Positions 2,694 through 29,922 of a stretch of DNA of 64,000 nt are shown piece after piece. Numbering within the stretch: position 1 is the first letter of the stretch; each line of letters starts with the position of its first letter. The stretch lies in assembly GCA_000004985.1 (NCBI GenBank), contig GG738913.1, one strand, 5' to 3'. This DNA comes from Naegleria gruberi (Eukaryota). The translations under genes were made by a program, and so were the position numbers. The notes under the pieces are model-generated. The model saw only the letters and a program-made list of their open reading frames with translations, ran no database searches and was not told the DNA's origin.

Positions 2694-5600
2694 TTATTTG
2701 AATAAGCGAACTAGTTGATAGATTATGAAAATAACCAACATAGCATGGAGAAGGAAATGCACAATCATTGATTTGCTTATCAATGATGACTGCTTTCGTT
2801 CTACAGATTCGAATTGGACGTGTAAAATTCTCATACTTGAAGCCATCAATCCAGCAAATGGAATCCAACTTGGTGCCATGAATGGATATCTTTCTTTCAC
2901 GCCACCAATTTGTTGTCTTTCCTCCATTTGGTATTGCTCTGAAACTAGCTTTGCCTTTCTGTGAAGGGAATGCACAAATGGTTCAGCATCGACAACAAAG
3001 GATTTGAATGGACCTCCCTTATTGAGAGATTTCACAGAGCTTGGTGTGAAGAAATACGGAGCAAAGCCTGACATTTCAAAAAGAATATTACTACCTGGTA
3101 GTTTCTTTTCCAACATTTCGAATATTTGAACAAGTTGTGACTTTTCAAAGTAGAGGAATAGACCTTCTGCAATTACCAAAACTGGAATTGACTCACCAAA
3201 TGATTTTCTTATGAAAGCAAGATCTGAAAATGTTGATTCTTCTAGAATAGATCCACTTTTACATTCGTATAGTGGTTGTTTCGTATTGTCATTATTGTTA
3301 ACAATATTAAAAACTTGTCTTCTCAATTCAATGACATTTGGCAAATCAATATCAATCCAATGCACCTTCTCATTCATTCCAAATAATCTTTCATATCTAG
3401 AACACAATCCACATCCCAAATTAACAATCATTACCTTTTCATGCTTAGCCAAACTCTTACTCACAAATTCTTGTGATTTCCTATCCAAGACAATAGTTCT
3501 CCCAACAATATTAGTTCTGGTAATTCTATCATTCTGAACATCAACAGAGAGATCTTCTGGTAAGTTTTGGAAGATTTTCACAGCAATTGGATCATATAAA
3601 ATTCCATCGCTTTCAAGAGATTCGAGAGCTCTGGAAACGAGTGGAATGTAGAGAGTTCTTTCGAGAGGTGTGAGGACAGAGTTCTTATCTTGAGCAATGT
3701 CTACGTCAAAAGGAGTTGGATTATGTGATGATTGTTGTGGAGAGCCAAGAATGGAATGTGAAATAAGATTCGAATAATGTTTGTCAAGTTGATGTCCACA
3801 ATTCTTAACAGTAATAATATTCAATCCATTTCCTGCAAACTTATTCCAGTTGTTAATTGTATTTCCTGTTACTAATTTATCAAATTCGCCTCTGAGAGCA
3901 ATAACTGGACAGTCAACTTGGTATTTTCCAAAAATGTCATCGTCATAACAATGATATTTCAATAAAAAGTCAAATTGGTGTTTGAAAAGTGGAATTTCCA
4001 TCAAATCTCTAATCTTCTTTGCCTTTTCATCCAAGTTCTCAATTCCTTCTGTTACATTAGGGAACAAGTCAAGATCGACAATTCCATAAATGATCGATTG
4101 ATCTCCCAAAGTTTTAAATTTCACATAAGAATCACCATGAAGCGAATTTCCAGGAGCATTTCCACTAACAATCAATTTTACAGGTTTCTTATTGAACTTG
4201 AATTGAATAAATCTTGTAAATTCAAGAGCAACCAAAGCACCCATGCTGTGTCCATAGATTGTAACCGTATTGGAATTAAATAGTTGATGGACACAATCCC
4301 AAACTTGCATGAAATGAGCAGTCCAATCAGAATTATTTCTCAAATAATCCAAATTAATCACATAAATGGAAAATTCTTCAAGATTTAAATCTCTAAAATC
4401 ATGAACTGTTCCACCAAGTGCTGGAAAACAGAGTAAAACATTCTCTGATGATCTTTCTTGGATAGTTTCTAATAACAAGTGCTTTTCTAATGAATTGGTT
4501 TGATTTGGACTATTAGATTGTTGTGTTAATTGTTGATTGGATGATTTTCCAGAATTGGAAATCATTTCAACAAGAGTAGAAACCGAAACTCCAGATAAGA
4601 GAGTCGAAACTGTAATACTTGATGAAAATTCTCTTGATAGAATATTTCTTATTTCTACACTCATGAGAGAATCAAGACCATAGTCAACAAGTGGTTTCTC
4701 CAGTTGAATTTCACTTTCGTCCATTCCAAAAACTTTGGATACAATATCTGAAACCTTTCTAACAATTCCATCAACGTTAGAATCTGTAGTTGTTGATTTT
4801 CCTTCAATATTTGATTCCTTTCTTTGACGACCAAATGTTACATGAGGTGAAAGTGAATCCTCAGGCATTTCAAATCCAAAGAAGGTCATTGCAGGAGGAA
4901 GATCCATCTCGTGTTCAATCAAATATTCGAAATGATCAAGTAAATCATGAACATGCATAGCTCCAACCCAGAAATATTCATCAACTTCTGCCTTAGTTGC
5001 ATATCCAGCTCCTGTAATCAAACTTAGACCTAAAGATTGTCCAGCCAATCCACAACTTCTTCTATAGCTACACAAAGATTCTAAGAAATAATTTCCACTA
5101 TTATAGTTTGATTGACCGAATGCTCCAACCAAAGAACTGAAAGAGCTCAACATTAAAAAAGTGGATAGATTGCAATTGAGCTTGATTGAACATTGGTGAA
5201 GGTTGAAACCTCCGAGAATCTTTGGTCTGGCAACAGTTTCGTACTTTTCTTTTGTCATCTTATTTGCAGCACAATCGGATAAAACCATTGCTGAATGGAC
5301 AATTCCTGTAATTGGGAATTTTTGATGGATTTCTTGCATTGTTTGATAAAGAGTTGAGTAATTGCAAATATCAGTAATGTAAACATCAATAGATGCATTA
5401 GGGTTATTCAGCATAATCTTGTCAATGATCAATTTTTCAGATTTGTTTGGCATTCTTCTTGTAAGAAGGGCAATGTTTGAGACTTTCATCTTTTCAACAA
5501 GCCATTCGCACATCTTTAATCCAATTCCACCCAATCCTCCACTAATAACCCAACAACCGTTATTCAATATCTTCTTTTGAGATGTCAAAGAATTATAAAT

Positions 5601-8600
5601 AACATTGGAATAAAAGTGAACAAATCTTCCACTTTCAGAATAAACAATTTCATCATGAGTATAAACAGATTCAAGGACATCATCAACAATTTCACCAATT
5701 GAGTTTTCTGAACATTTAGGTTGCATATCAATAACCTTTAACTTCTTTTGGAATATCTCAGTTTGAATTGATCTCAAACATCCAACAATAGAAGATTGAG
5801 AAATGTTACATTCCTGATTGTAACCAAAAACTGAACTAGTTAGAGCAACGAATTTACATCTGCCAGTATTGAACTTGAGTATCTTACAAATTGAGTACAT
5901 AGATTCCACACAATTGGAAACTGTTTCAAACTCGAAAGAGCTTAAAGAAAGTGGCCAACCGAAAATAATTCCACAGATATTCAAAGTTTGATTGAATATT
6001 GATTCGAAATGTTCAAAATCTGCAGGATTAATAACGAATCCAGAATCAAGTTGTTGGAATTTTTCACCTTGAATAATTTTGACAACTTTTACACCTCTAG
6101 ATTTCAATTCTTCACACAATAAATTTTCCTTTTGTGTTTCAGAAGAGAAGAACAACCATCTCTCAACATTTTTCTCTTTCTTCTTTGCTATAATGTAATT
6201 TGCAGTACCAATTGGCAACATGACATTTGAAGGGAAATCACAATCCAATAAAACTTGTTCCCACTCATTTCCTGATAGCAAAGCAGATTGCTTTCTGAAG
6301 GAATCCTTAAAATACCACCATCCCTTCAAAGTACCAACGAAAAAGTGTAAAAATTGAGCTCCAAGAGGATCAGACTCAACTAGGACTAATTGACCATTGG
6401 AAACCAACAAGCTTGAAATGAGTGAAAAGACGGATTTCAAATCTTGAGTAGCATGAACAACATTAGCAGCGATTACCAAATCAAACGAATCCTTTTCAAT
6501 GAATTCTGAAGAAACAAATGGCTTTTCAATATCTAATAAAGAAAATTCCATAAAATATTCGAATTGTGCAAACTTTTCCTTTGCCTTCACCAAAAACAAT
6601 GGTGAAATGTCTGTGAAAACATACTTCACATCTATATAATCTCTCAATGAATCAAGAATTGGTAAAATTTGTTTGGTTGTTCCTCCAAGTCCAGCTCCAA
6701 TTTCCAAAATTCTCAAAGTCTTCTTTTTACCATTCTTTGGAATGGAGTTCAAAATAAAATCAAACAATGGTTTAGTTTGATGAGAAACTTCATCATAATA
6801 ATCATTCAATACATGTTCTTTTCTTGAAAATAGGACAGAAACAGGATCTGCCTCACCAGTTAATAATTGCTTCATGTGAATTAAACTATTTTCCACCAAA
6901 TCGATCAGATTGGAATAAAGATCAATTCTTGGAAATTCTCTCAAGGATTTGATAATATTAAATCTATTAGGAAGATCACTAACTACTGTATAAGTATCTG
7001 AATCATATTGGACAAGATTCATTTGTAAAGCCAACTCAATAGTCAATTGAGCAAGTCTCTTCAAATGTTCTGGTTGAATCCTAGAATTCAAAACAGAAAG
7101 CTCGATAGTAGAACTTTCACATAACTCTTGGAATACATTCAAACAATATTCAACACAAACCTTGGTAACAAATCTATTAAGAGATTCGTGTTCGTTTGAG
7201 TATTCATTGAGTTTGAAATTGAGAATAAACTCTTGCAATGATTCCATAGAAGGAAGAATAGATTTAGAATAGATTGGTTGTGGTGCAAAGTTTGATGATA
7301 CAATAGAAGTTTCTTGAAGTTTCTTTTCTTTGGTTTCCAAAGGTGAAACTTTGAAACCATTGAAAGAAATAAATGGCTCATTAGATTCTCCCAAAACTTG
7401 TAAATCACAAGTAATTTCTTTTGTTTGAGCATTCTTCGAATATTTAACACATCTGGTGATGGTGTGTTTCGAATTGTTTGGTTTTCTATGTGGGATGATT
7501 GTAATTTCGTCTGTGGAAATTGGAAGATAGGTTGTATCCTCTGGCATTGAACAAATCATCATTTGGAAACATGAATCAAGCAATGCAGGATGCCATGTAC
7601 AATATCTTTCGTCATTTTCCAAAGCTTTTGGATGGGAAATTTGTGCCATCAAAACTTCTCTTGTTTCGTCATGTCCAACTTGGCTGTACAAATCCAATCC
7701 TTGGAAACAAGGTCCATAATTGAGGCCACATTTGGACAGATTGAAATAGATATTCTCCTTATGAATGTTTTGTGTTTTTTCATCAAGATTTTCTGTGAAA
7801 TTTCTGAAAATATCAAAGGCTTTCAATTCTCTGTTTGTGAAATTGATGGAATCACCAGAATTAGAAGAATCTAGAGTTTTGAAAGAACCAAAGGCATGTA
7901 AAGTCCAATCACAAGGTAGCTTATTTGATAACTTGGAAGGATCTTTGGAAATTTCTGAATAATTAATAGATAACAAGTCAACCTTCTTTTTGCTGAAAAT
8001 TCTAAACTCATTAGCATACAAATTCAAATGAACTTGAACAATTCTAGGCTCTTGTTGTAAAATCATTGGATTTACCACTTTGAAATTGACTAGACGAAGC
8101 TCTTCAACATTCTTGGACGAGTTATCAAGAATTGCTGCAGAACTAATCTCAACGAAACCAGAATATGGGAAGAATACTTCATTTTCAATCTTGTGATCTC
8201 TAATATACATTTGATCAGTGTTAGAACTAATATCAATAAGACTCTCATAGATAATATCTGGAGAATTTTCCATTGGATTGAATTTTCTGTTACCCAAAAG
8301 TGGATGATTAATAGTTTCGAATTGACCAATTCTCCATCTCAAAGATTCATAAGATTCTGACCAACAAGATTGTTTCTGGAAAGGATATTTAGGAATTCCA
8401 TCCAATATCTTACTATTCTCTCCATATCTATTAATTTGTTTCCAATCAAGTTTAGAATATCCATTCACAAACAATGAGGAGACAACTTGTAACAAACTCA
8501 TTTGTTCATCCTTCTTTCTAATCAATGTTGGAATTACAGAAATAGAATCTTCATTTCCTAATGAAGAAGACGAAATATCCTTAATGTATCCATTCAAAAC

Positions 8601-11184
8601 CGGATGGGAAGATATTTCAATAACATATTTGATTGAGTTTTTGTAAGTGTGAAAAATCTCTTCCATAGCTTGTGAAAACAAAACCTTCCCTCTGACATTA
8701 TTCCACCAATATTCTGGTGTTGACATTTCTTGGAGGTTTGACTTTCTTCCAGTGACAGTAGAGAAAACGGCTTGAATATTATCATTTGGTTTGGTTCCTC
8801 TTTCCTTTTTTGAGATTCTATTAGAAAGAACTTCTAATAACTCTTTCTTGATTACTTCCATATGGCTGGTATGGAATGCAGCTTCATTTCTCAAAAAGAC
8901 ACAGTTGACTCTTGAGTTTGGTTCATTTTCCACATACTTGGTGAGATCAAGTTGCAATTGTTTCAACACATGTTCTTCACCACCAACTACAACGGAGGAA
9001 TTACTATTTACAGATGCAATCTCAACAGTATTGTTAAATCCAAGAATATCCAAAATTGAGGCCAATTTGTCCAATCCTAAATTGATAGCCATCATTTTAC
9101 CTGTTTTAGAAAATTCTTTCAAGATGGTTGCACATTTGTTTTGCAATCTTGCTCTATGATAAATCAAGAATACAGCTTCCTCTAGAGTGAGGCATCCATG
9201 CACGTATGCAGCTGTCACTTCTCCAACTGAATGTCCAACAACAATTCGAGGAGTGACTCCATATGATTTCAATACTTCATAACAACCACATTGTACTGCA
9301 AAGATACATGGTTGAGCAATGTTGGTTGAGTAAATTCTGGTGTCCTTTTCTGTTCTTGTAGTCAACTCTTCTACAATTGACCACTTGTCATTGGTTGGCA
9401 TTATCTTTTGCATTTCTGAATCAATTCTTTCAACTGTGGCAGAGAAAACATTGTTGGTTTCCAATAATTGTCTTCCCATAGCAAACCATTGAGGTCCTTG
9501 TCCAGAGAAAACAAAGCAAATATCGGATTTTTCTTCTCTCTTGCTTGAGTTACCAATGCTAGTTGATTCATTAGATGAAAAATTGGAGGACAATTGGAGG
9601 AGCTTTTCAACGAGCTCATCTTTGTTGTTGTAAATGATAGAAGCTCTGTAGTCTCTGAATTGACTCTTCTTTTCACAATAGTTGAAAAGTAAATCATCTT
9701 GATTGCATTGAGCTGAAAACTCAGCAACGCTACTAGACATCATCTTGAGTGAGTATTCACTCTTGGCAGAAAGTGGAAGAATTCTAATACCTTCTGATAT
9801 GCTATTCTTTCTTTGATGTTCTAATTGCTCAACACTTTGCAAGATGCAATGAGCATTAGTACCACCCATACCAAAGGAATTAATTCCAATAATAACAGGA
9901 TTGATATTAGAAGGGATTTCTTCTTCTTGCATGACAACTCTAATTTGTTTCTTCTCAAACTCAATGTGAGGATTGAGTGTGCTCTCAGTGCAATGAATAC
10001 TCTTAGCTATCTTCCTATGTTTCATCATGAGAATAGCTTTGATAATACTTGCAATCCCACTTGTTGCCTCTGTGTGACCAATATTACTCTTGACAGAACC
10101 AATTGGTAACTTGTCAAGTTTGTGCTTTCTTCTTTCTCTTCCAAAGAATGAATCAAGAGCTTGAGTTTCAATCTTATCTCCAATAGTAGTTCCAGTTCCA
10201 TGACTTTCAACATAATAAACATGTTGTGGAGGAATGCCACTCTTGTTGTACACTTGTTCCAATAATTCAACTTGTCCTTCCAGAGAGGGCATTGTTATTC
10301 CACTCTTTCTTTCTCCATCGTGATTGACCCAAGTTGACATGATCAAAGCATGAACTCTTTCATGTTGTGAAGAATTCGCATGCTTGTATGTGTTGATGAT
10401 GAGATGATGAATCTAATTTCTTCAAAATTAATACAGCAACACCTTCAGATTTTCCATAACCATCAACATGTGAAGAGAAGGTTTTACATCTTCCATCTGG
10501 TGCTGCTGCTCCAATAAGCTTTTGAGATACAAATTCTTGTGGAATGTAGTTTAAATTAACTCCAGCAACAATGGCCATTTCGCATTCATCTCTCTGTAAA
10601 CTTTCACATGCACAATTGAGTGCTACCAAACTTCCTGAACACATGGTATCGAGAGTGAATGACGGGCCTCTCAAATCGAAATGATACGAAATCCTGGCAG
10701 AATTGTTAGCTGGTGAAGAGTTTATCAAACTGTACGAGTTGTAAGTTTGCATGTCATGCCAGCCTTTCATGGTGAGATAATCTTGGTTCATCACAGAACA
10801 AAACACACCAATGTTTCTTCCTCTGATTTCTTCCCATTTAATTCCAGCATCCTCCAAGGCAATGTAAACTTGTTGAAGAAGGAGACGATGTTGTGGATCC
10901 ATGGAGCATGCTTCCTTCTTGGAAATTTCAAAGAATTCAAAATCAAACTCATCTAATGGTTTCTCCAAGAAGTGAGCCCTGTTGTAGGTTTGCTTATTGT
11001 TGTGGAATCTTGATGATTGTCTTTCCTTTGGTATGGTTGAGCTGGTGTCACTACCGTCAAGAAGAACTTGCCAGAATGATTCAACATCCACTGCCTGTCC
11101 AGGGAACATACAACTCATTCCAATGATGCCCATTGGTGAGTTTTCAGCAGAGTTTGATGGAGTAGTAGAATTGATAGAAATCAT
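2694..11184 (-). CDS. Type I iterative polyketide synthase: KS-AT-DH-cMT-KR-ACP-TE with a C-terminal TcmP/LCM-family methyltransferase. The reading frame is broken by a +1 shift at TGA (10360-10362)
   Basis: - The N-terminal ORF 10360..11184 carries the KS start IIGMSCMFPG and the active-site DTMCSGSLVAL.
- The downstream ORF continues the KS (VNHDG, HGTGT, NIGHTEATSG).
- AT: GHSVGE.
- DH: HPLLG.
- C-methyltransferase: LEIGAGLGGTT.
- KR: ISGGLGGIGL.
- ACP: LVDYGLDSLMSVE.
- TE: GHSMGALVALE.
- LCM/TcmP-like methyltransferase: LYIPLVSRALES...VNLGCGLCSRYERL.
- No ER domain is present.
- Stop is TAA. Confidence 0.85.
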
Positions 11185-11705
11185 TTTCTTAATTACAAAG
11201 GTATAGAGTGTTGGTCTTTTTTCTTATAAATTAAAAAACAATAATCAAACACCAAACCATTTTAAATCATGAGTGGTCATTAGCAATTTGGAATCAGCAA
11301 TAACAACAATAATTCATTATTGTCTCATACTGCTAGATAAGTCACAAGAACTTGTTACTTTCCTTTTTAAATCTGCCGCTCTCAGCCAAGTCACAAGTTC
11401 AGCCATTATGAACTAGTTTTTTTCAATGGAGTAGTTCAACTAAGAGATTCAGAAGAGTTCGCATCACTGATACTGAAGTGTTTGTTAGTATAAAAGCTTC
11501 GGGAATCACTGATTGTGATAATACAATTCAATTGTGGGAGTTCGGATGTTGATGTTCTTGAGATACGAACTCCTTGTGATGAAAAAGTGTTGATGATACT
11601 AATCACCCCGGTTCCAATAACAAGTTCTGAATGAGAGTCTGGTCAGTGATACGAGCCCTTTTTATTGGCATCTTGATATGGATTGGATAACATTAAAAAA
11701 TTATC

Positions 11706-11951
11706 ATGATTATCTACATACTTGTGGCTATTCCATTTCTGTTTCTTCTCTATGTTGGCTATCTATTGTGCAAGTTGTATGTATTCAACAGATATCCAAA
11801 GAATGTTTTTCTGGCGCCGCACTATCTAACAGAGAATGTTGTCCAAACCAAAAAGTTCAACAAGAATCCTTTCAAGAAAGAAAAACTTGCAGAGCATTAT
11901 GATGCAATCATTATTGGCTCAGGTGTTAGTGGCATTATTTGGGCAAGATGA
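11706..11951 (+). CDS. First coding segment of the RETSAT-like oxidoreductase: N-terminal TM helix plus FAD-binding GxGxxG. The junction to the main ORF is unresolved
   Basis: A-rich leader before the ATG. Hydrophobic IIYILVAIPFLFLLYVGYLL followed by YDAIIIGSGVSG. It ends at an in-frame TGA (11949-11951). The main ORF is in the +1 frame, but a further TGA and a TAG intervene. Confidence 0.45.
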   Translation: MIIYILVAIPFLFLLYVGYLLCKLYVFNRYPKNVFLAPHYLTENVVQTKKFNKNPFKKEKLAEHYDAIIIGSGVSGIIWAR

Positions 11952-12000
11952 TAGGTCCAGAAAGTGAGCTGATGGATCTTCTCTGTGATAGAAAATTGAG

Positions 12001-13380
12001 ATGTTGTCCCTTGATGAGAACTTTGATAATCTGTCCATTATTAATTCTGCTACAAATGAAAAGTTGTTAGAAATAGAAATTCCTGAAGGTCAAGACAAGT
12101 TAATCAAAAAGCTCAAAGAAGTCTTTCCAGAAGAATCCAAAGCCATTGATGAGTATGTTGAGATATCGTTTCCACCAAAGTATGAAATTATTCCAGTTAT
12201 TATTTTAAAGTGTTTCCCATTCATATTTTCCAAATTATTCAAGTATCTAGTTGCACCAAAATTTATGAATTATGTCCATACTAGTATTGGTCAAGCTCTT
12301 GACAAATTGACGTCCAATCAGCTTCTTAAGAGTGCCATTTGCTATATTGGCATAGATTATGGTTCAAATCCAAAAGCAACTCCACTCTATGAGCATTCAA
12401 TGATTCACAATATTTTCAAGAATGGTGGTCACATTCCAAAGGAAGGAGCAGACGATATTGTCGAAAGTTTGATAAAGGTCATTAGAAAAGGAGGTGGAGA
12501 TGTGATGAGCAAGGCAAATGTTGCTTCAATCCACATCAATAAGGAAGGAAAATGTGGAGGAGTGTGCGTGTTAAAGAACAAGGACTCTATCATTATTGAA
12601 TCTCCGATTGTAATTTCATCTGCTGGAGTTTACAATACTTATTCAAAGCTCATTCCTCGTCCAATAAGAGAAAAACTTGGCTACAATCACTTCAAGTACA
12701 CGCCTTCATATTCTGTTCAGGCAACCTTCCTTGGCTATGATGGCACAATAGAAGAATTAGGATTAAAGTTCCAAAACTATTTCATCATGACTAACCCTGA
12801 TTTTGATGGTCAATTTACCAGATACATGGAAAGTGATGGAGATATTGACCCAAAGAATGGCATTGATATTCCAATCTTGATAGCCAATCTCAGACCTTAT
12901 AATAACAAGGTTTCAATGACTATCCTCAGCTTTGCCAATCATGCATGGTTTCAAGAGTGGAACCATCAACGAGTTGGACAACGTAGTGTTGACTATGAAG
13001 ACTTGAAGGAGAGAATTGCCAATCGAGCCCTCGAATTATTATACATGAAACATCCACAACTTGAAAATAGACACTCTGTAATGAGTACTTCCTCACCAAT
13101 TACATTTAATCATTATCTATCCAATAATTTTGGAGATTACATGGGTTTTAAGAGAGTGGTTGGTAATGATGATGGTGTATTCCGTTGGGGAAGGCCAATG
13201 TCCAATCTGGAGAATTTGTTTTTGGTTGGGCAGGATATCTTTGCAGGAGGTGTGCAGGGAGCAATGTTGAGTGCTTTAATTACATGTGGATGCGTGTTGA
13301 GGAGGAATTTGTTTGATGACTTGGCAAAGGCCGTTGAAGAGATGAAGAAGTGGAAGGCTTTGCTATTTTGTTTTAAATAA
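12001..13380 (+). CDS. All-trans-retinol 13,14-reductase (RETSAT)/CrtI-family FAD-dependent oxidoreductase, main body
   Basis: KKLKEVFPEESKAIDEYVEI aligns with RETSAT KEKFPQEEAIIDKYIKL. The C-terminus FLVGQDIFAGGVQGAMLSALITCGCVLRRNLFDDL aligns with the RETSAT/CrtI C-terminus [34 protein letters not shown]. Stop is TAA. Confidence 0.8.
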   Translation: MLSLDENFDNLSIINSATNEKLLEIEIPEGQDKLIKKLKEVFPEESKAIDEYVEISFPPKYEIIPVIILKCFPFIFSKLFKYLVAPKFMNYVHTSIGQALDKLTSNQLLKSAICYIGIDYGSNPKATPLYEHSMIHNIFKNGGHIPKEGADDIVESLIKVIRKGGGDVMSKANVASIHINKEGKCGGVCVLKNKDSIIIESPIVISSAGVYNTYSKLIPRPIREKLGYNHFKYTPSYSVQATFLGYDGTIEELGLKFQNYFIMTNPDFDGQFTRYMESDGDIDPKNGIDIPILIANLRPYNNKVSMTILSFANHAWFQEWNHQRVGQRSVDYEDLKERIANRALELLYMKHPQLENRHSVMSTSSPITFNHYLSNNFGDYMGFKRVVGNDDGVFRWGRPMSNLENLFLVGQDIFAGGVQGAMLSALITCGCVLRRNLFDDLAKAVEEMKKWKALLFCFK

Positions 13381-14045
13381 CTTTTATTAATTATTTTTTT
13401 TAATTGGGAATCATATTCAAAACTATTCTTACGAGGTCTTCCTCTTGGTCGTTTAGGAAGACTCTTCTTTAATTCTTGTTCTTCCTTCATGGACTCTATT
13501 GTTGATATGAAGAATGTATTATTGTTACCTTTGGTACTTATGACGGTGTTGTTATTATTGGTATTTACAGGGGTGGTAGAAGAGGAGCTGCTAGTGGAGT
13601 AAGCAAGGATCGTCCTATGATTGTTATTATTATTAATATTTACAAATGATGATAAAGATTTTGGGGTTTGTTGCTTGCATTCTTCCATGATAGCAACATT
13701 GTTATTATTAGGAACAACATAATTATTGGATAAATTCAGTGGCTGATTCAATAGTGCCTTGTTTAGATGGTGATTGTTCATTGGCCAATTGTTGTTATCT
13801 TCATCATATGATGGAAGGAAGGAATCATCCACTGTGGGAGCATAATTCTCATGGTAAGGATTATTATTGGAGCTACTTAAAAGCAGATACAACAAGAATA
13901 GTGTCTGCTCGTTTGTGATATTGAAAGGTGAATGGTTTGGAAGCATTTGTTTTGTTACTGGTACCATAACTAATAACACATTATAATAGCCATTTACTAT
14001 GGTATGTGAACCCTGCATTCCTACTCTTCTGGAAATATATCTCAT
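13137..14045 (-). CDS. Asn/Ser-rich low-complexity protein with an AT-hook (KRPRGRPRK), putative DNA-binding
   Basis: Long ORF containing a GRP-core AT-hook and poly-N tracts. The 3' 240 nt overlap the end of the RETSAT-like ORF on the opposite strand, so the true 3' end is uncertain. Confidence 0.35.
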   Translation of the reverse strand: MRYISRRVGMQGSHTIVNGYYNVLLVMVPVTKQMLPNHSPFNITNEQTLFLLYLLLSSSNNNPYHENYAPTVDDSFLPSYDEDNNNWPMNNHHLNKALLNQPLNLSNNYVVPNNNNVAIMEECKQQTPKSLSSFVNINNNNNHRTILAYSTSSSSSTTPVNTNNNNTVISTKGNNNTFFISTIESMKEEQELKKSLPKRPRGRPRKNSFEYDSQLKKIINKSYLKQNSKAFHFFISSTAFAKSSNKFLLNTHPHVIKALNIAPCTPPAKISCPTKNKFSRLDIGLPQRNTPSSLPTTLLKPM

Positions 14046-14151
14046 CCATTTTTAGAATATCTCTAACCGCTCAAAATAGCAATAGGTAACATATATGGCA
14101 ACAGCCAGATCACATTAATAATTCATGGCTAATACCATTCAAAAAGATTTA

Positions 14152-14496
14152 TTAGGGAGGAGAGGATTCATCCTCCTTGAAATCATGTTCCTTAAAATTC
14201 ATGGTTTGTATTAATGAAATATGATCTATGTCGCAAAACCTTTCATATTCTCGGTATAGGGCCAGGGAAATAACATTAGGAACGGTTTTTTGGTTTAATG
14301 ATGAGTATTCGTTAGAGAAATCCTCTAGATTTTCAAAGCTATAGCCCTCTTGAGCCACATCAGACAGTTTCTGATAGATGGCTCTTTCTGATGCGATTTT
14401 AAACATTTTTTTCTTTGGTGTTTGTGTGATATCTCTACAACCATTCTGTTCAAGAATACGAAGTGAAACACTAATGTGTAGTTTTCTAAAATCCAT
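14152..14496 (-). CDS. Hypothetical small protein (114 aa)
   Basis: Isolated ORF ending in TAA with no recognisable domain. Confidence 0.3.
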   Translation of the reverse strand: MDFRKLHISVSLRILEQNGCRDITQTPKKKMFKIASERAIYQKLSDVAQEGYSFENLEDFSNEYSSLNQKTVPNVISLALYREYERFCDIDHISLIQTMNFKEHDFKEDESSPP

Positions 14497-14722
14497 AACT
14501 AGAATTTCTAATAAGTATTACCAAGTTTTTGTTTAGGAATGGTATCACCAATAGACAAATGCAAAACTTCATCTTTCATCCTTTGTAACGAATAGATAGT
14601 AGCGGTTAATTATCATTATTCATATCCAATCTCCCTCTATTCGAAATTGAAGTATGAAGTCACACTTTTCGATTCTTTGACTGATGTAAATTGAAAATTT
14701 ATAATTCGTGGTTCAACAACAT

Positions 14723-16006
14723 TTAAAAAAATCCAACCATGACAGGAAGAGCAAAACCTCCGATAGCTGGAATTCTGAAAACCTCAATTTCAGTAACTTT
14801 GAATTTTCTGCTTCCTCCCAAGTAGCTTCTTGCCTCTTCTGTTTCAAACTTGTATCCATTTGGTAAATGATAGGTTCTTCCAAGATTTGCATAAGATTCA
14901 CTTGAATTGCAATTGTTTACAATGCGAAGATCATGTCCAGCTCCAAACACACAAAGATCATTTTTGCCACATCCCATTGCATAGCTTTGACAAATTTGAT
15001 TTCTGGGTTCGAATTGCTTGAATGTGGAATTCTCAATTTTAAATAAGAAAGCTGTAGGGTCAAGTTTGTGGTCATTAATTTGCAATGCTTCCCAATGCTC
15101 TGATGTGAAACCGCCAAATATATTTCCATGCTCAGATTTGATAATTGAAAGAGTTGGTCCTTTGTAATCACATCTTGAATGGAAATCAACTGCTTGGAAA
15201 CCATCTCTACTTCCTCTATATAACAATTCAGGAGGTTCTTTACAACCAATTGCTAAATAAATTTCAGACATTAATTGATTAGTCAATATACACTCTTGTA
15301 AAATTAGAGAATCAATTTTGAAACGTGGGTCAATACTCTCAGCAAGTTCCTTTTTAAGATTTGTCAATTTGTACGAATCACAGACATGTCGCAATTCTAC
15401 TCTCTCTGAATTTGGAATATCATTTAGAACTGAATTTTGAAACCAATTGATAACATGTTTGAAAATTGTTGGATCGACATCAACGAAATAAACAGGATCT
15501 GAAAAGAGTGGTGATGGAGTTGCATGCATTGGTATCTCACCAATAAACATTTTCCCAAACAAGTTATCAGGTTCATTCTCAATAAATGGTTTCTTTGAAA
15601 TGGTCATAATAACTCCTCTTACATTCAAATGAATGGGTTTTTCAAGTTGAGATTCTTTCTTTGCAATAATGACAGGACAATGATTATCAATGTGATCGAT
15701 CAATTCACCTCTACACATCACACTTCCACACTCTTCACAGCTCACTTTCAACTTGGAAAGCATATTAGTGATACTCTTTGGTGCTGGAATTGCTGTAGAT
15801 TTGAGAGATTCTCCACCACATGTTGGACAATTCTCTGTCAATTCAATGCATTTAAAACAATACATCATGCCACACGCTGCATGAGTTAATGGATTCACAA
15901 GAGGAAGGTTGCAAATTTGACACAACAAGTTCTCGTCAATGCTGTTCAGGTCAACGTATTGGTAAACTGGTTCTATTCTCATTTTTTTGTTGCTGCTCTT
16001 TAACAT
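14723..16006 (-). CDS. RING/zinc-finger plus TLDc-domain protein (putative E3 ligase)
   Basis: N-terminal CQICNLPLVNPLTHAACGMMYCFKCI...CPTCG RING-like cluster and a second Cys/His cluster. The C-terminal LLYRGSRDGFQAVDFHSRCDYKGPTLSIIKSEHGNIFGGFTSEHWE is a TLDc signature. Stop is TAA. Confidence 0.7.
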   Translation of the reverse strand: MLKSSNKKMRIEPVYQYVDLNSIDENLLCQICNLPLVNPLTHAACGMMYCFKCIELTENCPTCGGESLKSTAIPAPKSITNMLSKLKVSCEECGSVMCRGELIDHIDNHCPVIIAKKESQLEKPIHLNVRGVIMTISKKPFIENEPDNLFGKMFIGEIPMHATPSPLFSDPVYFVDVDPTIFKHVINWFQNSVLNDIPNSERVELRHVCDSYKLTNLKKELAESIDPRFKIDSLILQECILTNQLMSEIYLAIGCKEPPELLYRGSRDGFQAVDFHSRCDYKGPTLSIIKSEHGNIFGGFTSEHWEALQINDHKLDPTAFLFKIENSTFKQFEPRNQICQSYAMGCGKNDLCVFGAGHDLRIVNNCNSSESYANLGRTYHLPNGYKFETEEARSYLGGSRKFKVTEIEVFRIPAIGGFALPVMVGFF

Positions 16007-16457
16007 ATCAGAATGGGTATTTAAATCATCTCAGAAGGATTTTTGGCTATTGCCATTGTAACCTTCTATTGTACTGGAATCGATCGATGGATTCTCGATC
16101 CTATCAAAATCCAAAACAAAACCACTTTAGGAAGGACAGAATGAGAGTGTCCATATTGAATTAATTTCATAAAAGAAATCAAATATGCTTGTCGGCTGTT
16201 GAGGAATCTTCTACATTTCTTTTTTTCAAAGCTGCCTCTTCTGCAATAATCATCATGTTGCTTTCTGAATATCAAATTCAAAAAAAAGAAAAAATATGGA
16301 ACTACCAAGCTCAAAAAATCAGGTTTAAGTATTGTTGATTATCTTGATGAATGATGATATTGAGAATGCAAAAATTGGACTATAGATAGACATTGATGAT
16401 GGGTATATATTAATAAATTTGCATGTTGAAAATATAAGACATAAGGTAAAATATTAA

Positions 16458-16528
16458 CTCGAACGCCGGGAATTGAACCCGGGTCGCCAGAGTGACAGTC
16501 TGGAATGCTACCACTATACCACGCCCGA
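16458..16528 (-). tRNA. tRNA-Asp (anticodon GTC)
   Basis: The minus-strand read TCGGGCGTGGTATAGTGGTAGCATTCCAGACTGTCACTCTGGCGACCCGGGTTCAATTCCCGGCGTTCGAG folds as a cloverleaf. The anticodon loop CTGTCAC and the T-arm CCGGGTTCAATTCCCGG match the eukaryotic tRNA-Asp pattern. Confidence 0.8.
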
Positions 16529-16709
16529 TTTCACTTTTCATTAACAATACCACAATATTACCGAAAATGCTATTAATATGCCAACAAAAAAATAAAATTA
16601 AACTTATGAAGATTAACTGGAATATTGGGTTAATTGTTACTGCCTCTTCAGACAAGCTCTGAATTTCAAACTGATATCCAAAAAAACACGTGTTTTCAAT
16701 TCAAAAAAA

Positions 16710-17597
16710 ATGGAAAATCTGCCCAATGAAATTCTCATTCACATATTTTCCTTCCACCAATTTGACTTTATTGATTTAAATCAATCTGCACCTTCTCCAC
16801 ATAATCAAACCATTTCAACTCTCTTTCAATTCTTGATGAATTTGACTGATGACAAGGCTTTGGATATATATAAAGGAGAGAATAATGTTACTTCCGATAC
16901 TAATACTAGTATTGATCAAGAACAATTTCCTGATTCCGATCGCAAATCTCTGCATAAATTATTTAATTATTATGATCCTAGTTCGTATGATAAGGAAGCC
17001 TACTTACTCTATCAGAGATACTCAAATGTTGATGTGGGTTCCATTAGAGAGGAGTGGTTTGAGAATGAGAATAGACAAAATAATATTGAAATATTGTTTT
17101 CATCATCAGAGTCTAAATGGTCGAATAATAGTGAGAGTTATAATGATCGATTGAATTTACTGCACGAATGTGTCAGAGATAAGAAGAAGTTTTTACAAAG
17201 TTTCAATATTGCCTTTATGAATTTGCTGATAGTGCATCAGACATTTGGAATTGGATTTTTGGGGCAGTTTTTAGTGAAATATATTCATCATTATCCATTG
17301 GTGTATTGTAATTTGAGTTTAGTTTCTAGGCAGTGGAAGGAAGCAGCTGATAATCAAAGTTTGTGGGAAGTTTCTACTGGCATGCTTCAACAATTATTAA
17401 GATTAAGATCTGATTTGGAATTTATTAGAAAGAAGCTGTTTTCTAGAATGGATAGTCAACTGGATATGAGTGCTGATGAAAATAATTATTATTCTTTGAA
17501 AACTCCACACGATTCAGGTCTGAAAAGATTTCAGGTAGATGAAAATTGTTCCATTAGACAAAGATTTATAATACTGTCGAGATATAATACTTTGTAA
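16710..17597 (+). CDS. F-box-like protein
   Basis: LPNEILIHIFSF at the N-terminus and a second LVSRQWKEAADNQSLWE F-box consensus. A-rich leader. The TAA stop is embedded in a GTAAGT, so the gene may splice on; see findings. Confidence 0.5.
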   Translation: MENLPNEILIHIFSFHQFDFIDLNQSAPSPHNQTISTLFQFLMNLTDDKALDIYKGENNVTSDTNTSIDQEQFPDSDRKSLHKLFNYYDPSSYDKEAYLLYQRYSNVDVGSIREEWFENENRQNNIEILFSSSESKWSNNSESYNDRLNLLHECVRDKKKFLQSFNIAFMNLLIVHQTFGIGFLGQFLVKYIHHYPLVYCNLSLVSRQWKEAADNQSLWEVSTGMLQQLLRLRSDLEFIRKKLFSRMDSQLDMSADENNYYSLKTPHDSGLKRFQVDENCSIRQRFIILSRYNTL

Positions 17598-17632
17598 GTT
17601 TCCTTCTCACAATTTAATATTAATAAGAAAGA

Positions 17633-19135
17633 TTGGAGAAAAATATCAAAGGTATTCCTCAACTGATTGATCAAGCCAAGACTGAAATTATTGAAAACAA
17701 GCATACTGAAAATATATTCAATCATACTGTCAGCTCTTTTGTAGAATTGAAATCAATTCAAATGAAGGAAAACAAATCTAAAAGAAGAAAGCAAATTTTT
17801 AGATGGTGTGTCAATAATTTTTTGGATAGAGTTTGTTGCAATCCAATCATGAAAAAGGGATTCTTCATTGTTTTCTTTGGAGTGCTTGTGTTCTTAATGT
17901 ATGACATGATAGGAATAGTTGGTGATGGTTTAAATAACCAAATGACCCTCAATGGGACAATTGCAACAAATCAGACGATAGCTCAACAAAATAGTCGATT
18001 CAACTCTGACTCTTTTTTAAGAGATTTAACCATATCGAGTGCTTTAATATTTTCGATTCTAATGGTATTTCAAGAAATGGCTAAACCAGGAATGATACCA
18101 GTTAGTTTAACCAAGTTTTCAATCACAATCTCCACAAGTTTCATACCTCCTGGACATAGTTTTGCAATAATTTCAATGCTTAAAATAATACTAGCGATAG
18201 AATATTTCACTTATATAATATTTGGAGGAGTGGGATTGAAAAATGTGTTGGAAATTTCAATGATTTCGAACATGTTTGTGTTGTTAATGCTAGTCTTATT
18301 GTTTTCTATTGGATTGTATGACGTGCTGAAGTTGAAACAATTGGGCATATTGAAATTGTTCAGATATTTATGTAATGTACAAAAAGAATTCAAAGAAGAG
18401 GAATATTCACTTTCTATTGGAATTCTAGTGATATTTTTGAGACTTTGCATAATTCCATTATTGGGAATACTATTTTGGACTCTTTTCAGTTTAACAATAT
18501 CTTTAGAAATTCGTTCTTATTGGCCCTTAGTTGTTTCAATTTGGTTATTGCAGATAGTCGTGCAAATTATTTTCATTTATGAATATATTTGGGTAAGAAG
18601 AGAAAGGATTAACAAAATTCATCACAATGAGACAATGATTCCAGTGAATGACAGAAGACAACAAGGAGAATACGATGATCAACTAATAATTAAGAGGAGT
18701 GTTGAATACCCATACGAATCAAAGGTTATTCAATTATTGGTGTTATTGGCCAATTTGGCTCTATTTATATCTGGAGTACATCTATTGGTAACTCAACAAT
18801 TCGAAAAATGGTTATGGAGCTCTCCATTCTTTATTATTTACATTGGTATTTGCTTTTACTTTATTAGATATCTTCACTTTCTTACTGGTCATAATCACAC
18901 AATGCTGTATAAGGAATATAAGAAAATGCTCAAAACATACAATCATGAATTATTCAAAATTCACATAGAAAATGAAGGGTCTGTCTCTGAGAGAATTGTT
19001 TGTCGATTGAAAATCAAAGGTGAGGAGGAAAATTCAGATCTAAATTCAGCCATTATTCCACTGGAGGAGGAAACGGATGTAGAAATCGAAATGGATGAAA
19101 CACAAACAGATCAAGATAATGTTAACCTAATTTAA
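17633..19135 (+). CDS. Multi-pass membrane protein, hypothetical
   Basis: At least eight hydrophobic segments and an acidic C-terminus. The ORF track starts at a TTG, and the first ATG is near 17762. Stop is TAA. Confidence 0.45.
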   Translation: MEKNIKGIPQLIDQAKTEIIENKHTENIFNHTVSSFVELKSIQMKENKSKRRKQIFRWCVNNFLDRVCCNPIMKKGFFIVFFGVLVFLMYDMIGIVGDGLNNQMTLNGTIATNQTIAQQNSRFNSDSFLRDLTISSALIFSILMVFQEMAKPGMIPVSLTKFSITISTSFIPPGHSFAIISMLKIILAIEYFTYIIFGGVGLKNVLEISMISNMFVLLMLVLLFSIGLYDVLKLKQLGILKLFRYLCNVQKEFKEEEYSLSIGILVIFLRLCIIPLLGILFWTLFSLTISLEIRSYWPLVVSIWLLQIVVQIIFIYEYIWVRRERINKIHHNETMIPVNDRRQQGEYDDQLIIKRSVEYPYESKVIQLLVLLANLALFISGVHLLVTQQFEKWLWSSPFFIIYIGICFYFIRYLHFLTGHNHTMLYKEYKKMLKTYNHELFKIHIENEGSVSERIVCRLKIKGEEENSDLNSAIIPLEEETDVEIEMDETQTDQDNVNLI

Positions 19136-19418
19136 ATAATGTCCTCAGTTACTTATTATTCAAATCATTTGCTTAAGTGGTAAGAGGAGCCAAATCATGG
19201 AGAGTTGGTTTTTCTGTAATAAGATTATACATTTGAATTTCGATAAAAGAATGGCCTTGTTTTTCTTCCTCCTATTCTATTCGCATCATCAAATGGTATC
19301 ATCATCGGATAGAGTATTACATTAGTTATTCGGATTTATTAAATAATAAAACAAGTGATAAAGAACATTTGTTTAATACTGATACAAAATTGGTAGCTCA
19401 ATGAATTTATTTCTCATG

Positions 19419-22400
19419 TTAAGCCAAGTTAAGTTGTCCAATCAATACAATACAAATCAACACTAAATATACCAATGAAATTGCAGTTGCTGATGCTTCA
19501 GACACACGTTGACTTTTGGATGGTGTCACATTTTTGCTTCCAGAAGTTTTTGGAGTAGTGATACTCTTGCTTGGTTGAGGAATTGAGCCACCAGAAGAAG
19601 TGGATGGTGTTGGAGTAACTGTCTGTTCACACAAACCATTAACCAATGATTCTCCTTGAGAACAAGTTAAGGAAACTTTTCTAATTCTATTGTTCGAATC
19701 ATCTGAAATGTATAATTCACCTACTGAGCTCACTGCCAAACCTGTTGGAAAGTTCAATTGAGCACTTGTTGGTAAAGACCCATCTCCGCTCAATCCTGCA
19801 ATTCCATTTCCAGCACTTGTGCTAATAGTTCCATTGACATTCAATTTACGAATTCTATGGTTATACGAATCAGCAATGAACAAATCACCAGTTGAGCTAA
19901 CAACTAGGCCACTTGGATAATTCAATTGATAAAGTGATGCATTATTTCCTTCACCATTATATCCAGCTGTTCCATTTCCAGCAATTGTTGTAATTATTCC
20001 ATTCAATGAGACCTTACGAATTCTATGATTATTAGTGTCAGAAATCAGCAATTCTCCATTGGAATTGACTGCTACATAGCTTGGATTATTTAATGTGGCA
20101 CTTGTTGCAAGACCACCATCTCCACTAAAACCTGCAACTCCACTTCCAGCCACAGTGCTAATATCACCATTGGTTGCAATCTTTCTAATTCTATGATTAT
20201 TCGAATCAGCAATGAAAATTTCACCACTTTTTGAGCTAATTGCAAATGATTGAGAATTCAAATAAGAGTTAACTGCAGAAGAGCCATCGCCCAAACCACC
20301 AGCAACTGTACTAATCTTTCCACTAGAAAGTTTACGAATTCTTGAATTGAAAGAATCAATAATGAAAACGTCACCGTTCGAATTGGAAGAAACTCCACTT
20401 GGATAATTGAAACATGTACTTGTGGCTGCCAATCCATCACCATTGAAACCAATCGCTCCACTTCCAGCAATGGTTGAAATGTATCCATTCGCAGCTACCT
20501 TTCTAACTCGTTGATTGTATTGGTCAGAAATATAAATTTCTCCAGAGTTTCCAATAGAAATGCTGAATGGGAAATTGAGCTTGGCATTGGTAGCTAATCC
20601 ATTATCTCCACTGAATCCAGAAGTTCCAGTTCCTGCAACAGTTGTAATGATACCAGAGGATGAAGAAACCTTTCGAATTCTATGATTACCAGAATCGGCA
20701 ATATAAATATCATTATTAGTCAAATTGACTGCTACTGCAAATGGAACGAACAATTGAGCATTAATGGCCAACCCATTATCTCCGCTAAATGTTGCCTTAT
20801 ATGCAACTGTTCCATTACCAGCAATTGTTGAAATATAACCACTAGTAGAAACTTTACGAATTCTATTATTACGAGTATCGGTGAAAATCAATTCACCATT
20901 TGAATTCATTGCAATTCCATTTGGATAATGGATTTTGGCAGATATGGCCAGCCCACCATCTCCACTGAATCCAGATTCTCCACTTCCTGCCACAGTTGAA
21001 ATGATACCACCAGTTGAAATCTTTCTAATTCTGTGGTTTTCAGAATCGGAAAAGTAAATTTCACCACTCGAGCTCACTACCACTCCTTTTGGATTATTCA
21101 ATTTGGCACTTGTAGCAGAGGAGCCATCTCCACTGTAGCCACTTGTGCCAGTTCCAGCAATTGTTGTAATGTAACCATTCGAAAGTTTACGAATCTTGTG
21201 ATTGGAAGAATCTGAAAAGTAAGAGTCACCATTAGAAGAGATGAAAATAGAGTTTGGATTATGTAATCTTTCAGTGATTGCTAACCCATCGCCACTGTCA
21301 GCTCCAATAGCACCAGTTCCTGCTACAGCTGTCAAACTTGATTTGATTTTTGACAAATACGAACCAAGATACATGACATATACTTCATTATTATAATAAC
21401 TAACTGCAGAACCCAAAGGAGTTACTGAACTAAGAGTGGAAATTACATTAGTTGACAAATCAACTCTTCTAACTTTTCCATTATCAGTAAATAAAAGATT
21501 ATTTCCATAAATAATAGGATTTCCATTTGGAGAAACAAATGATTTGCTTGCTTGAACATCCTCTCCAAAACTTGAGGTACCAGCAAATGTTGAAATCACC
21601 CCACTTGCAGAAATCTTTCTAATTCTATGATTATACGAATCTGAAATGAAAATTTCACCTACAGAGTTGACCACAATTCCAGAAGGCAACCACAATTGAG
21701 CATTAACGGCCAAACCACCATCTCCACTCAATCCAACAGTTCCTGTTCCTGCAATTGTAATAATGGTACCATTTGTCAAAATCTTTCTAATACGATTGTT
21801 AACAGAATCTGAAATGAAAATTTCACCATTCGAATTGACTGAAATTCCACTTGGATAATTCAATTGAGCATTCTTTGCCAAGATGGAATCTCCATTAAAA
21901 CCAGCAGTTCCAGTTCCTGCAACTGTAGTGACAATACCACTATTCGAAATCTTTCTAATTCGATGATTTCTTGAATCTGCTACAAATAGTTCACCATTCG
22001 AATAGAATGCTGCTCTTGGTGCATTGAATTTGGCATTTGTGGCCTGTCCATTATCACCACTGTATCCAGCAGCTCCAGTTCCTGCAATAGTTGTGATATT
22101 TCCAATGGAGGAAACCTTTCGAATAACATTATTAGAAGTATCGACAATAATAACTTCACCACTTGAGGAATTAAGAGCTAAACCGTATGGAGAGTTTAAA
22201 AGCGCATTCGTAGCAAGACCCCCATCACCACTATAACCATAGGATGAGGCAGTTCCAGCAATGGTTGAGATTTTTCCATTTGTAGAAACCTTTCGAATAA
22301 CATGATTGGAGGTATCAGCAATGAAAGTTTCTCCCAAAGAATTAACAATTACACCATAAGGAAAGTTAATTTCGCTCTGTGTAGCCAATGCACCATCTCC

Positions 22401-29701: not shown

Positions 29702-29785
29702 CTTAAAAGGTTCCGATGAGACGGAATTGAACCGCCGACCATAGGATGACAGAGCTAACTACAGTCCCATGCTCTACCAACTGAG
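29702..29785 (-). tRNA. tRNA-Tyr (anticodon GTA) with an 11-nt intron after position 37
   Basis: The minus-strand read is CCGATGATAGCTCAGTTGGTAGAGCATGGGACTGTAG[TTAGCTCTGTC]ATCCTATGGTCGGCGGTTCAATTCCGTCTCATCGG. The acceptor stem CCGATGA/TCATCGG is perfectly paired. The intron position is canonical for eukaryotic tRNA-Tyr. Confidence 0.85.
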
Positions 29786-29922
29786 CTATCATCGGATATG
29801 ATTGGAAAGTCGAAATAACTTTTTATAAATACTTGTCATCAAGTCTCCTTTTAATCAGACATTGCTGCAAAAGCATGCTTTTTGGTGTTAGGCCTAACAA
29901 TTCATTAAAATTCTTGAGAAAA

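Follow-up and report, generated by a model that had tools for sequence, protein, structure and literature searches.

In a 64,000-nucleotide stretch of the Naegleria gruberi genome (assembly GCA_000004985.1, contig GG738913.1; hereafter the window, meaning this whole stretch), we identified a type I polyketide synthase (PKS) that ends in an undescribed tail of thioesterase (TE), leucine carboxyl methyltransferase (LCM)-type methyltransferase (MT) and membrane anchor, and that is accompanied by a divergently transcribed gene for a RetSat-type flavoenzyme. We lean modestly towards the view that the pair encodes a membrane-anchored two-gene pathway, whose product would be a methylated, partly saturated acid ester, and that the copy in the reference strain has recently been disabled. 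A first-pass annotation of the same DNA had proposed a compact pathway of this kind from the letters of the sequence. The observation behind it is real and far beyond chance, and its interpretation is largely right; it had overlooked a conserved anchor at the PKS C-terminus and another at the flavoenzyme N-terminus. To our knowledge, no polyketide is known from Naegleria. A Naegleria pangenome study counts 16 PKS genes and urges their further study (PMC9928731), and a PKS with this tail and a RetSat-type partner was not described in the papers covered by our literature search.

The polyketide synthase and its C-terminal tail

The PKS gene occupies positions 2694..11184 on the minus strand and corresponds to the public model XP_002670671.1 (NAEGRDRAFT_74353). 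In the window it is divided between two open reading frames (ORFs) lying in different frames, at 10360-11184 (274 aa) and 2694-10346 (2550 aa), which together form one PKS. The assembled protein of 2,824 aa in the first-pass annotation was a mere concatenation of these two ORFs. The true junction is a frameshift within the ketosynthase (KS), and with 2 nt restored according to a 99%-identical relative, the metagenomic contig L019, the gene becomes a single open frame of 2830 aa. The window as a whole is very gene-dense, has 33% G+C and uses the standard genetic code; alternative codes 4, 6, 10 and 15 were tried as the cause of the ORF break and fail to bridge the KS junction.

Pfam bears out the order that had been read from the sequence, namely KS, acyltransferase (AT), dehydratase (DH), C-methyltransferase (cMT; Methyltransf_12), ketoreductase (KR), acyl carrier protein (ACP) and TE with no enoyl reductase (ER), and places the LCM domain (PF04072) and a hydrophobic C-terminal tail behind them. 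All of these domains lie on the minus strand. The N-terminal part of the KS (10411..11136; PF00109, E 2.3e-66) holds the active-site Cys in DTMCSGS, located by motif alignment, while the C-terminal part (9990..10343; PF02801, E 1.3e-35) holds the histidines of HGTGT and NIGHTE; these catalytic Cys-His-His residues align with those of the orthologs, although the KS frame is nonetheless broken in the window. The AT (8466..9515; PF00698, E 2.1e-49) contains GHSVGE and AAFH and, by the usual rule for the latter motif, would be of the malonyl type. Further along are the DH (7326..8306; PF21089 and PF14765) with HPLLG and LLDSCFQ, the cMT (6297..6767; PF08242, E 6.3e-15) with LEIGAGLGG, the KR (5016..5558; PF08659, E 6.2e-43) with GGLGGIG and the Tyr of SNYNSGN, and the ACP (4518..4781; PF00550 and PF23297) with GLDSLMS. 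The catalytic motifs of all seven domains, together with the S-adenosylmethionine (SAM)-binding motifs of the terminal MT, are intact and conserved relative to the orthologs. Since Pfam and the ortholog alignment place the AT, DH, KR and ACP motifs in one polypeptide, the PKS is a single module and hence, judging from its architecture, presumably iterative. No ADH_zinc_N or ADH_N match was found by Pfam in this PKS or in its orthologs from Naegleria lovaniensis (P0002) and Naegleria fowleri (P0003), and the interval between cMT and KR has no ER; the identical search does detect both families in P0004, a homolog from a metagenomic protist. Outside Naegleria, the nearest relatives of the PKS are bacterial PKSs with 24-32% identity.

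The TE (3702..4436) is a type II-like alpha/beta hydrolase whose PF00975 score is marginal at 27.1 bits against a cut-off of 26.4; the two Naegleria orthologs reach 34.2 and 29.1 bits and P0004 reaches 44.4. It resembles solved type II thioesterases, including PDB 5ugz (E 2.2e-7) and RedJ (3qmw/3qmv), and its triad consists of the nucleophile in GHSMGA and of the Asp of EFD and the His of CGHQ, both of which align to 5ugz.

Immediately behind the TE lies the LCM/TcmP-type SAM-dependent MT domain (2808..3674), which we assigned by Pfam, family alignment, predicted model and Foldseek. The first-pass annotation had staked its reading on membership in PF04072, and Pfam finds that family at residues 2237-2411 with 38.3 bits (E 1.7e-9) against a gathering score of 22.3, and in the two Naegleria orthologs with 38.6 and 43.4 bits. 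The two motifs it had quoted, LYIPLVSRALES and VNLGCGLCSRYERL, are both present in the sequence; the domain carries VNLGCGLCSR, DIDLPNV and IAEGLFLYF. Queried with only the TE-MT tail, a word-indexed search for homologs returned nothing, and relatives surfaced only in an exhaustive HMMER search, in which the last 608 residues drew 1635 relatives at E <= 0.001, among them 372 at E <= 1e-10. Almost without exception these are free-standing proteins about 270 aa long, with which the MT domain aligns end to end while keeping all eight invariant columns (D38, R69, D74, G99, R106, W116, D120 and G181). A family profile built from this alignment matches the PDB entry for LCMT1/Ppm1 with E 4.5e-14 and also matches Rv0731c and ML2640. 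Moreover, the AlphaFold model of the tail domain (mean pLDDT 90.1) has ML2640c, Ppm1/LCMT1, TYW4 and Rv0731c as its top Foldseek matches (E 3e-12 to 5e-11). TM-scores on target length are 0.60-0.74 for ML2640c, Ppm1 and Rv0731c and 0.32-0.33 for TYW4, which is about twice as long and scores 0.58-0.60 on query length. Identity to the solved LCM members is 13-17%, and membership of the tail domain in the LCM superfamily is well supported. LCMT1/Ppm1, TYW4 and TcmP are carboxyl O-methyltransferases.

The last 25 or so residues of the PKS form a hydrophobic helix (2700..2774; helix 311-335 of the model) with a Kyte-Doolittle mean of 2.31 over 19 residues, which is predicted to act as a tail anchor and is kept in the ortholog alignment. 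The closest standalone relative of the MT (P0121, encoded at L004 2097-3167; 356 aa, 36% identity) likewise ends in a long hydrophobic segment, which points to another organism where the enzyme would exist as a separate, membrane-anchored protein.

As had been claimed, PF04072 is an unusual domain for a PKS tail. Among the best 120 PKS homologs it occurs only in P0002, P0003 and P0004, and among the best 150 relatives of the TE-MT tail only four proteins exceed 2000 aa. Three of these match through the methyltransferase, namely the public model of the gene itself, P0004 and P0141 from a bacterial metagenome-assembled genome (MAG), which has the architecture KS-KS-KR-LCM; the fourth, P0005, matches the TE part only. 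A scan of metagenomes with the eukaryotic MT alignment gave 10 distant loci with 25-29% identity, inside ORFs of 158-577 codons, and zero new PKS fusions. At L005 2017-8604, a bacterial MAG encodes a protein of 2195 aa with a KS, a second KS-like region, a KR and, at its C-terminus, PF04072 (64.2 bits); PKS-LCM fusions therefore exist in bacteria as well.

The divergent flavoenzyme gene and conservation of the pair

Upstream of the PKS, on the plus strand, lies a disrupted gene for a flavin adenine dinucleotide (FAD) oxidoreductase of the RetSat/CrtI family (11706..13380). It is spread over three frames in the window: the first (11706-11933) encodes an N-terminal anchor and GSGVSG, the second (11933-11995) a remnant, HYLGK...CDRK, in which HYLGKMIGPESELMDLLCDRK is still recognisable, and the third (12001-13380) a 459-aa ORF. 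The last of these is 100% identical to the public model XP_002670622.1 (NAEGRDRAFT_81787), which comprises this ORF only, and by itself it has zero Pfam matches. The RetSat/CrtI likeness given in the first-pass annotation was upheld by profile and homolog searches. The flavoenzyme matches PDB 4dgk, a phytoene dehydrogenase, with E 9e-5, as well as a carotenoid isomerase profile. UniRef labels the ortholog from N. lovaniensis an all-trans-retinol 13,14-reductase, and the best named distant homolog of the flavoenzyme is an animal RetSat (31% identity, E 1e-55). RetSat saturates the 13,14 double bond of all-trans-retinol, and by family membership the Naegleria enzyme would carry out a putative double-bond saturation or desaturation. 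The FAD-binding beta-alpha-beta fold (GxGxxG, an acidic residue and GG) is incomplete in the window, where only GSGVSG is left; it is present in the flavoenzyme of contig L019 (P0279, 588 aa, which falls in the sequence cluster of the 459-aa protein), in N. lovaniensis, in N. fowleri and in the metagenomic contig L003. The hydrophobic anchors, C-terminal in the PKS and N-terminal in the flavoenzyme, recur in every ortholog of either protein.

Five genomes or contigs retain the gene pair: the window, N. lovaniensis, N. fowleri, the wild N. gruberi-like contig L019 and the distant protist contig L003. In N. lovaniensis (L001) and N. fowleri (L002), a RetSat-like gene of 614 or 626 aa lies divergently, 412-419 bp upstream of a PKS with 55-56% identity and unchanged domain order, and both genes are intact. 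The architecture that the first-pass annotation had proposed to look for in related genomes, a PKS with TE and LCM-type MT, was thus found in both species. It recurs in P0004 of L003 (35% identity), which has an ER and which, behind its TE, LCM domain and anchor, also carries a fused P450. Divergently from P0004 stand two RetSat-like genes in tandem that share 30% identity with their Naegleria counterparts (E 1e-85). L003 is from a eukaryote; L016, a second contig of the same metagenome, has PRP3 adjoining a homologous PKS. In L003 the PKS region (10001-20587) contains a degenerate cMT-like motif, LEIGEGIIGT, and the RetSat-like genes lie upstream at 5630-9425; the gene call splits off the N-terminal part of the KS as an overlapping gene of its own (114 aa), for which an intron or frameshift may be responsible.

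Comparison by tblastx of the 10-kb flanks in L001, L002 and L003 with the whole window gave no synteny outside the pair at E <= 1e-6, so that only the PKS and RetSat-like genes are syntenic. Two controls bear on the association. The metagenome that gave L003 also contains a PKS paralog that lacks the MT tail, and no RetSat gene lies beside it; likewise, no PKS gene adjoins a RetSat paralog from Naegleria. Across the five eukaryotic MT sequences, which share 34-56% identity, 54 columns are invariant. With the divergent pair kept and the flanks unshared, a functional pairing of the PKS with the RetSat-like gene is well supported. In N. lovaniensis, a DDE_1/Tc5-type transposase gene (L001 18764-20074) lies directly downstream of the PKS and is absent there in N. 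fowleri.

The two genes are separated in the window by a predicted shared divergent promoter region of 521 bp (11185..11705), where 520 bp had been claimed, and we put the shared promoter at 0.3-0.5 kb. AGAACTTGTT occurs four times in the window against 0.34 expected, including an inverted pair in the spacer at 11347-11356 (+) and 11619-11628 (-). GAACTTGTT is the sole non-trivial 9-mer common to the three Naegleria spacers, any shared 9-mer being found in 53 of 2000 shuffles, and it is a possible shared cis-element. Relative to L019, the window spacer has 37 extra nt (GTGTTTGTTAGTATAAAAGCTTCGGGAATCACTGATT) at 11478-11514 and one extra A at 11582.

Frame lesions, public gene models and local neighbourhood

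Our reference for the lesions was L019, a 7.5-kb contig from an ENA/Logan metagenome that is 98.5-99.5% identical to window positions 6003-13401 and carries an intact flavoenzyme gene and an uninterrupted 5' part of the PKS of 1734 codons. The frameshift in the PKS lies in a surface loop of the KS at 10372..10377 (about 10375; minus strand), where an AT dinucleotide is absent, GCGAAATTTC in L019 reading GCGAATTC in the window. Two further differences in the PKS are in frame, namely a missing His codon at about 10394 and 15 missing nt (5 codons) in the cMT region at about 6600. The flavoenzyme gene (plus strand) has a 136-nt deletion at 11932..11933, which takes out most of the FAD-binding beta-alpha-beta fold (helix alpha1, strand beta2 and the EKH..GG motif), and a second frameshift at 11989..11991 caused by deletion of a single A (GATAAGAAAATT in L019, GATAGAAAATT in the window). 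A single A is also absent at about 13353, altering the last flavoenzyme residues relative to L019, whose ORF stops 9 codons earlier. The first-pass annotation did not notice that both genes are frame-disrupted; of the compact two-gene pathway it proposed, the conserved pairing stands, and in the strain that was sequenced the pathway probably does not operate, unless the reference is wrong at the locus.

Between the window and L019, substitutions in the PKS comprise 35 synonymous and 21 non-synonymous changes (pN/pS 0.15), and those in the flavoenzyme gene 5 synonymous and 0 non-synonymous changes, a pattern which indicates that both genes were under purifying selection until very recently.

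Two other explanations of the KS break were rejected. One was that positions 10362-10389 are an insertion of 28 nt or a very small or non-canonical intron, since removal of these 28 nt opens a frame of 2820 aa; comparison with L019 shows that this sequence is genuine coding DNA, part of a loop that is 11 codons longer. The 52-nt GT..AG intron of the public model would delete the strand VLILKK, which is kept in all orthologs and in L019. All three introns modelled in XP_002670671.1 remove ortholog-conserved sequence: they bridge the frameshift through the 52-nt intron, splice out the conserved VCVEYCLNVFQE and remove the second half of the MT. The MT of this model diverges after ELRRQ into 20 unrelated terminal residues, the membrane anchor being lost as well, and because of this truncation PF04072 is unlisted for the public protein. 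The 2550-codon ORF is otherwise 99% identical to XP_002670671.1, which lies together with XP_002670622.1 on one scaffold of 236,320 nt. The public N. gruberi models are therefore wrong for both genes, with the MT cut off, conserved segments spliced out and the flavoenzyme reduced to a fragment. The reference strain, which we take to be NEG-M (Fritz-Laylin et al. 2010), would probably be the wrong choice for tests of function.

The surrounding region is extremely compact, with other gene spacers of 25-80 bp. A convergent gene for a secreted DUF4832 protein (975-2669) has its stop codon only 24 nt from that of the PKS, and on the other side a 302-codon Asn-rich ORF with an AT-hook-like RPRGRPRK (13137-14045, minus strand) runs opposite to the flavoenzyme ORF and covers its final 244 nt. 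Further genes encode a zinc-finger/BTB/TLDc protein (14723-16006, minus strand), a 1096-aa NHL-repeat protein (19419-22709, minus strand) and a GH5 cellulase (22908-23957, plus strand), none of which is conserved beside the PKS in other species. The minus strand also carries tRNA-Asp(GTC) at 16458-16528 and tRNA-Leu(TAG) at 29709-29796.

A proposed pathway and its relation to known systems

We hypothesize that the PKS assembles a methyl-branched, unsaturated chain from malonyl units, with methyl groups supplied by SAM and with KR and DH acting where no ER is present. The TE would then hydrolyse the ACP thioester to release a free acid, and the adjacent LCM-type domain would convert the carboxylate to a methyl ester, as LCMT1/Ppm1, TYW4 and TcmP do on their own substrates. 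The RetSat-like enzyme may saturate, or else isomerise or desaturate, at least one double bond in the methyl-branched polyene. Both proteins being anchored, the pathway would be located at the membrane surface, and the P450 fused behind the anchor of P0004 fits such an assembly. In the reference strain, this unit would recently have been disabled by the 2-nt deletion in the KS and the 136-nt and 1-nt deletions in the flavoenzyme gene, the unit being intact in the wild relative, N. fowleri and N. lovaniensis.

Several observations weigh against this reading. Family precedent alone assigns a carboxyl substrate to the MT and a reaction to the flavoenzyme, and iterative use of the PKS module is assumed from its architecture. 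The MT domain matches TIGR00027 with 38 bits (E 9.1e-10), under the cut-off of 93.55 bits, while 40 of 40 aligned family members match that model; the flavoenzyme matches TIGR02734 (crtI_fam) over positions 93-489 with 59 bits (E 2.6e-16) against a cut-off of 238. With both scores under the NCBIfam cut-offs, the two proteins are divergent members of their respective superfamilies. P0004 has an ER and yet retains two RetSat genes, so the flavoenzyme is not merely a substitute for the absent ER. Finally, the lesions may reflect errors in the reference assembly instead of true mutations; those other than the 136-nt deletion are differences of 1-3 nt in A/T-rich contexts.

The main rival for the role of the MT, which we consider improbable, places it at the start of synthesis. 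By the logic of BioC and Art28, the LCM-type domain would methylate the carboxyl of a malonyl-ACP starter, a methyl-ester-capped dicarboxylate chain would grow, and the alpha/beta-hydrolase annotated as a TE would release the chain or later strip the ester. Methylation of malonyl-ACP followed by an esterase is experimentally established as an initiation route for Art28/Art9 and BioC/BioH (PMC8302727), and in Naegleria a carboxyl-type MT does adjoin an alpha/beta hydrolase, both fused behind the ACP. However, Art28 and BioC are of the UbiE/Methyltransf_11 type rather than PF04072, the Naegleria PKS is without a separate loading ACP, the hydrolase appears closer to chain-releasing or editing type II thioesterases than to esterases of the BioH type, and a position after the TE better fits tailoring after release. 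We give equally little weight to the idea that the tail is not a carboxyl MT at all and instead O-methylates a hydroxyl or enol, C-methylates the product or serves as a non-catalytic scaffold between PKS and membrane. Most members of PF04072/TIGR00027, including ML2640c, Rv0731c and the standalone proteins of about 270 aa, have no known substrate, and the Asp of the GxGxD motif is replaced by Cys here (LGCGLCSR). The same replacement is seen in many standalone family members, however, and both the full set of family-invariant columns and the 54 columns invariant among the eukaryotic sequences argue for a conserved, active enzyme; all characterised relatives of the LCM-type domain that we know of methylate carboxyl groups.

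The remaining alternatives concern the pair and its lesions. In a compact genome with short spacers divergent pairs are common, and the two genes might be neighbours only through a bidirectional promoter while belonging to separate pathways. We find this the least convincing of the alternatives, for in each of the five genomes or contigs adjacency and orientation persist, at protein identities as low as 30-35%, while every other neighbour differs, paralogs of either gene stand without the partner, and a 9-mer is common to the three Naegleria promoters. Both genes are also lesioned in the same strain, although this fit to a shared function is only suggestive. We are fairly confident that these lesions are very recent mutations of the sequenced strain. 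The competing explanation, errors in the reference assembly at a pair that is intact and functional in that strain, is unlikely but deserves more weight than the other rivals: the remaining ORFs of 2550 and 459 codons are fully open in DNA of 33% G+C, purifying selection relative to L019 is strong, and three of four lesions are differences of 1-2 nt. Against it, the clean loss of 136 nt is unlike a base-calling error, four frame-affecting indels fall within 7.4 kb, where the non-coding spacer has just two indels, of 37 nt and of 1 nt, and the predictors behind the reference models were also forced to invent introns or truncate genes.

If the preferred reading of a membrane-anchored pathway holds, the architecture couples a membrane-anchored PKS, a module of TE and carboxyl-type MT that would release and cap the product, and a RetSat-type tailoring partner. 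The unit is intact in the brain-eating N. fowleri and is among the few with a clear conserved partner gene, which makes it an entry point to amoebal secondary metabolism. A far more speculative extension, which we regard as a long shot, is that Naegleria, N. fowleri included, makes a retinoid- or juvenoid-like lipid by a polyketide rather than an isoprenoid route. This would be a RetSat-saturated, methyl-branched polyenoate methyl ester, assembled by membrane-tethered enzymes (the PKS by its tail anchor, the flavoenzyme by a signal anchor), used as a signal or defence compound and lost over a very brief span in the axenic laboratory strain that was sequenced.

Parts of this system have clear counterparts elsewhere. 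The MT shares PF04072, profile, fold and SAM-binding motifs with the LCM superfamily (LCMT1/Ppm1, TYW4 and TcmP, and the uncharacterised ML2640c and Rv0731c); unlike those proteins, it is covalently joined to a PKS, between the thioesterase and a membrane helix. Similarly, the intact Naegleria orthologs of the flavoenzyme share the N-terminal anchor and the FAD-binding GxGxxG...E..GG fold with vertebrate RetSat and bacterial and plant CrtI/CrtISO, whereas the Naegleria gene clusters with a PKS instead of an isoprenoid pathway, scores far under the family cut-offs and, in the window copy, is without its FAD-binding core. In BioC/BioH and Art28/Art9, as would be the case here, an acyl-ACP pathway relies on an alpha/beta hydrolase together with a carboxyl O-methyltransferase that uses SAM, a methyl ester being put on and then taken off ACP-bound dicarboxylates (PMC8302727). 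Those enzymes, however, belong to another MT family, are separate proteins and act in initiation, while the Naegleria domains follow the ACP at the release end.

Other PKSs offer parallels in overall design. The 'Steely' PKSs of Dictyostelium are also protist type I PKSs with an extra C-terminal catalytic domain that processes the ACP-bound product; their tail is a type III PKS, unrelated in sequence to the Naegleria tail of TE, carboxyl-type MT and anchor. Fungal highly reducing PKSs of the LovB/LovC type share the single module of KS-AT-DH-cMT-KR-ACP without a working ER, the SAM-derived methyl branches and a separately encoded, clustered reductase that is expected to set the saturation pattern. 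In contrast to that system, the Naegleria partner is a membrane-anchored FAD enzyme of the RetSat/CrtI type rather than an MDR-type enoyl reductase, and the PKS itself, in a heterolobosean amoeba, has a TE, an LCM-type MT and a membrane anchor fused to its end.

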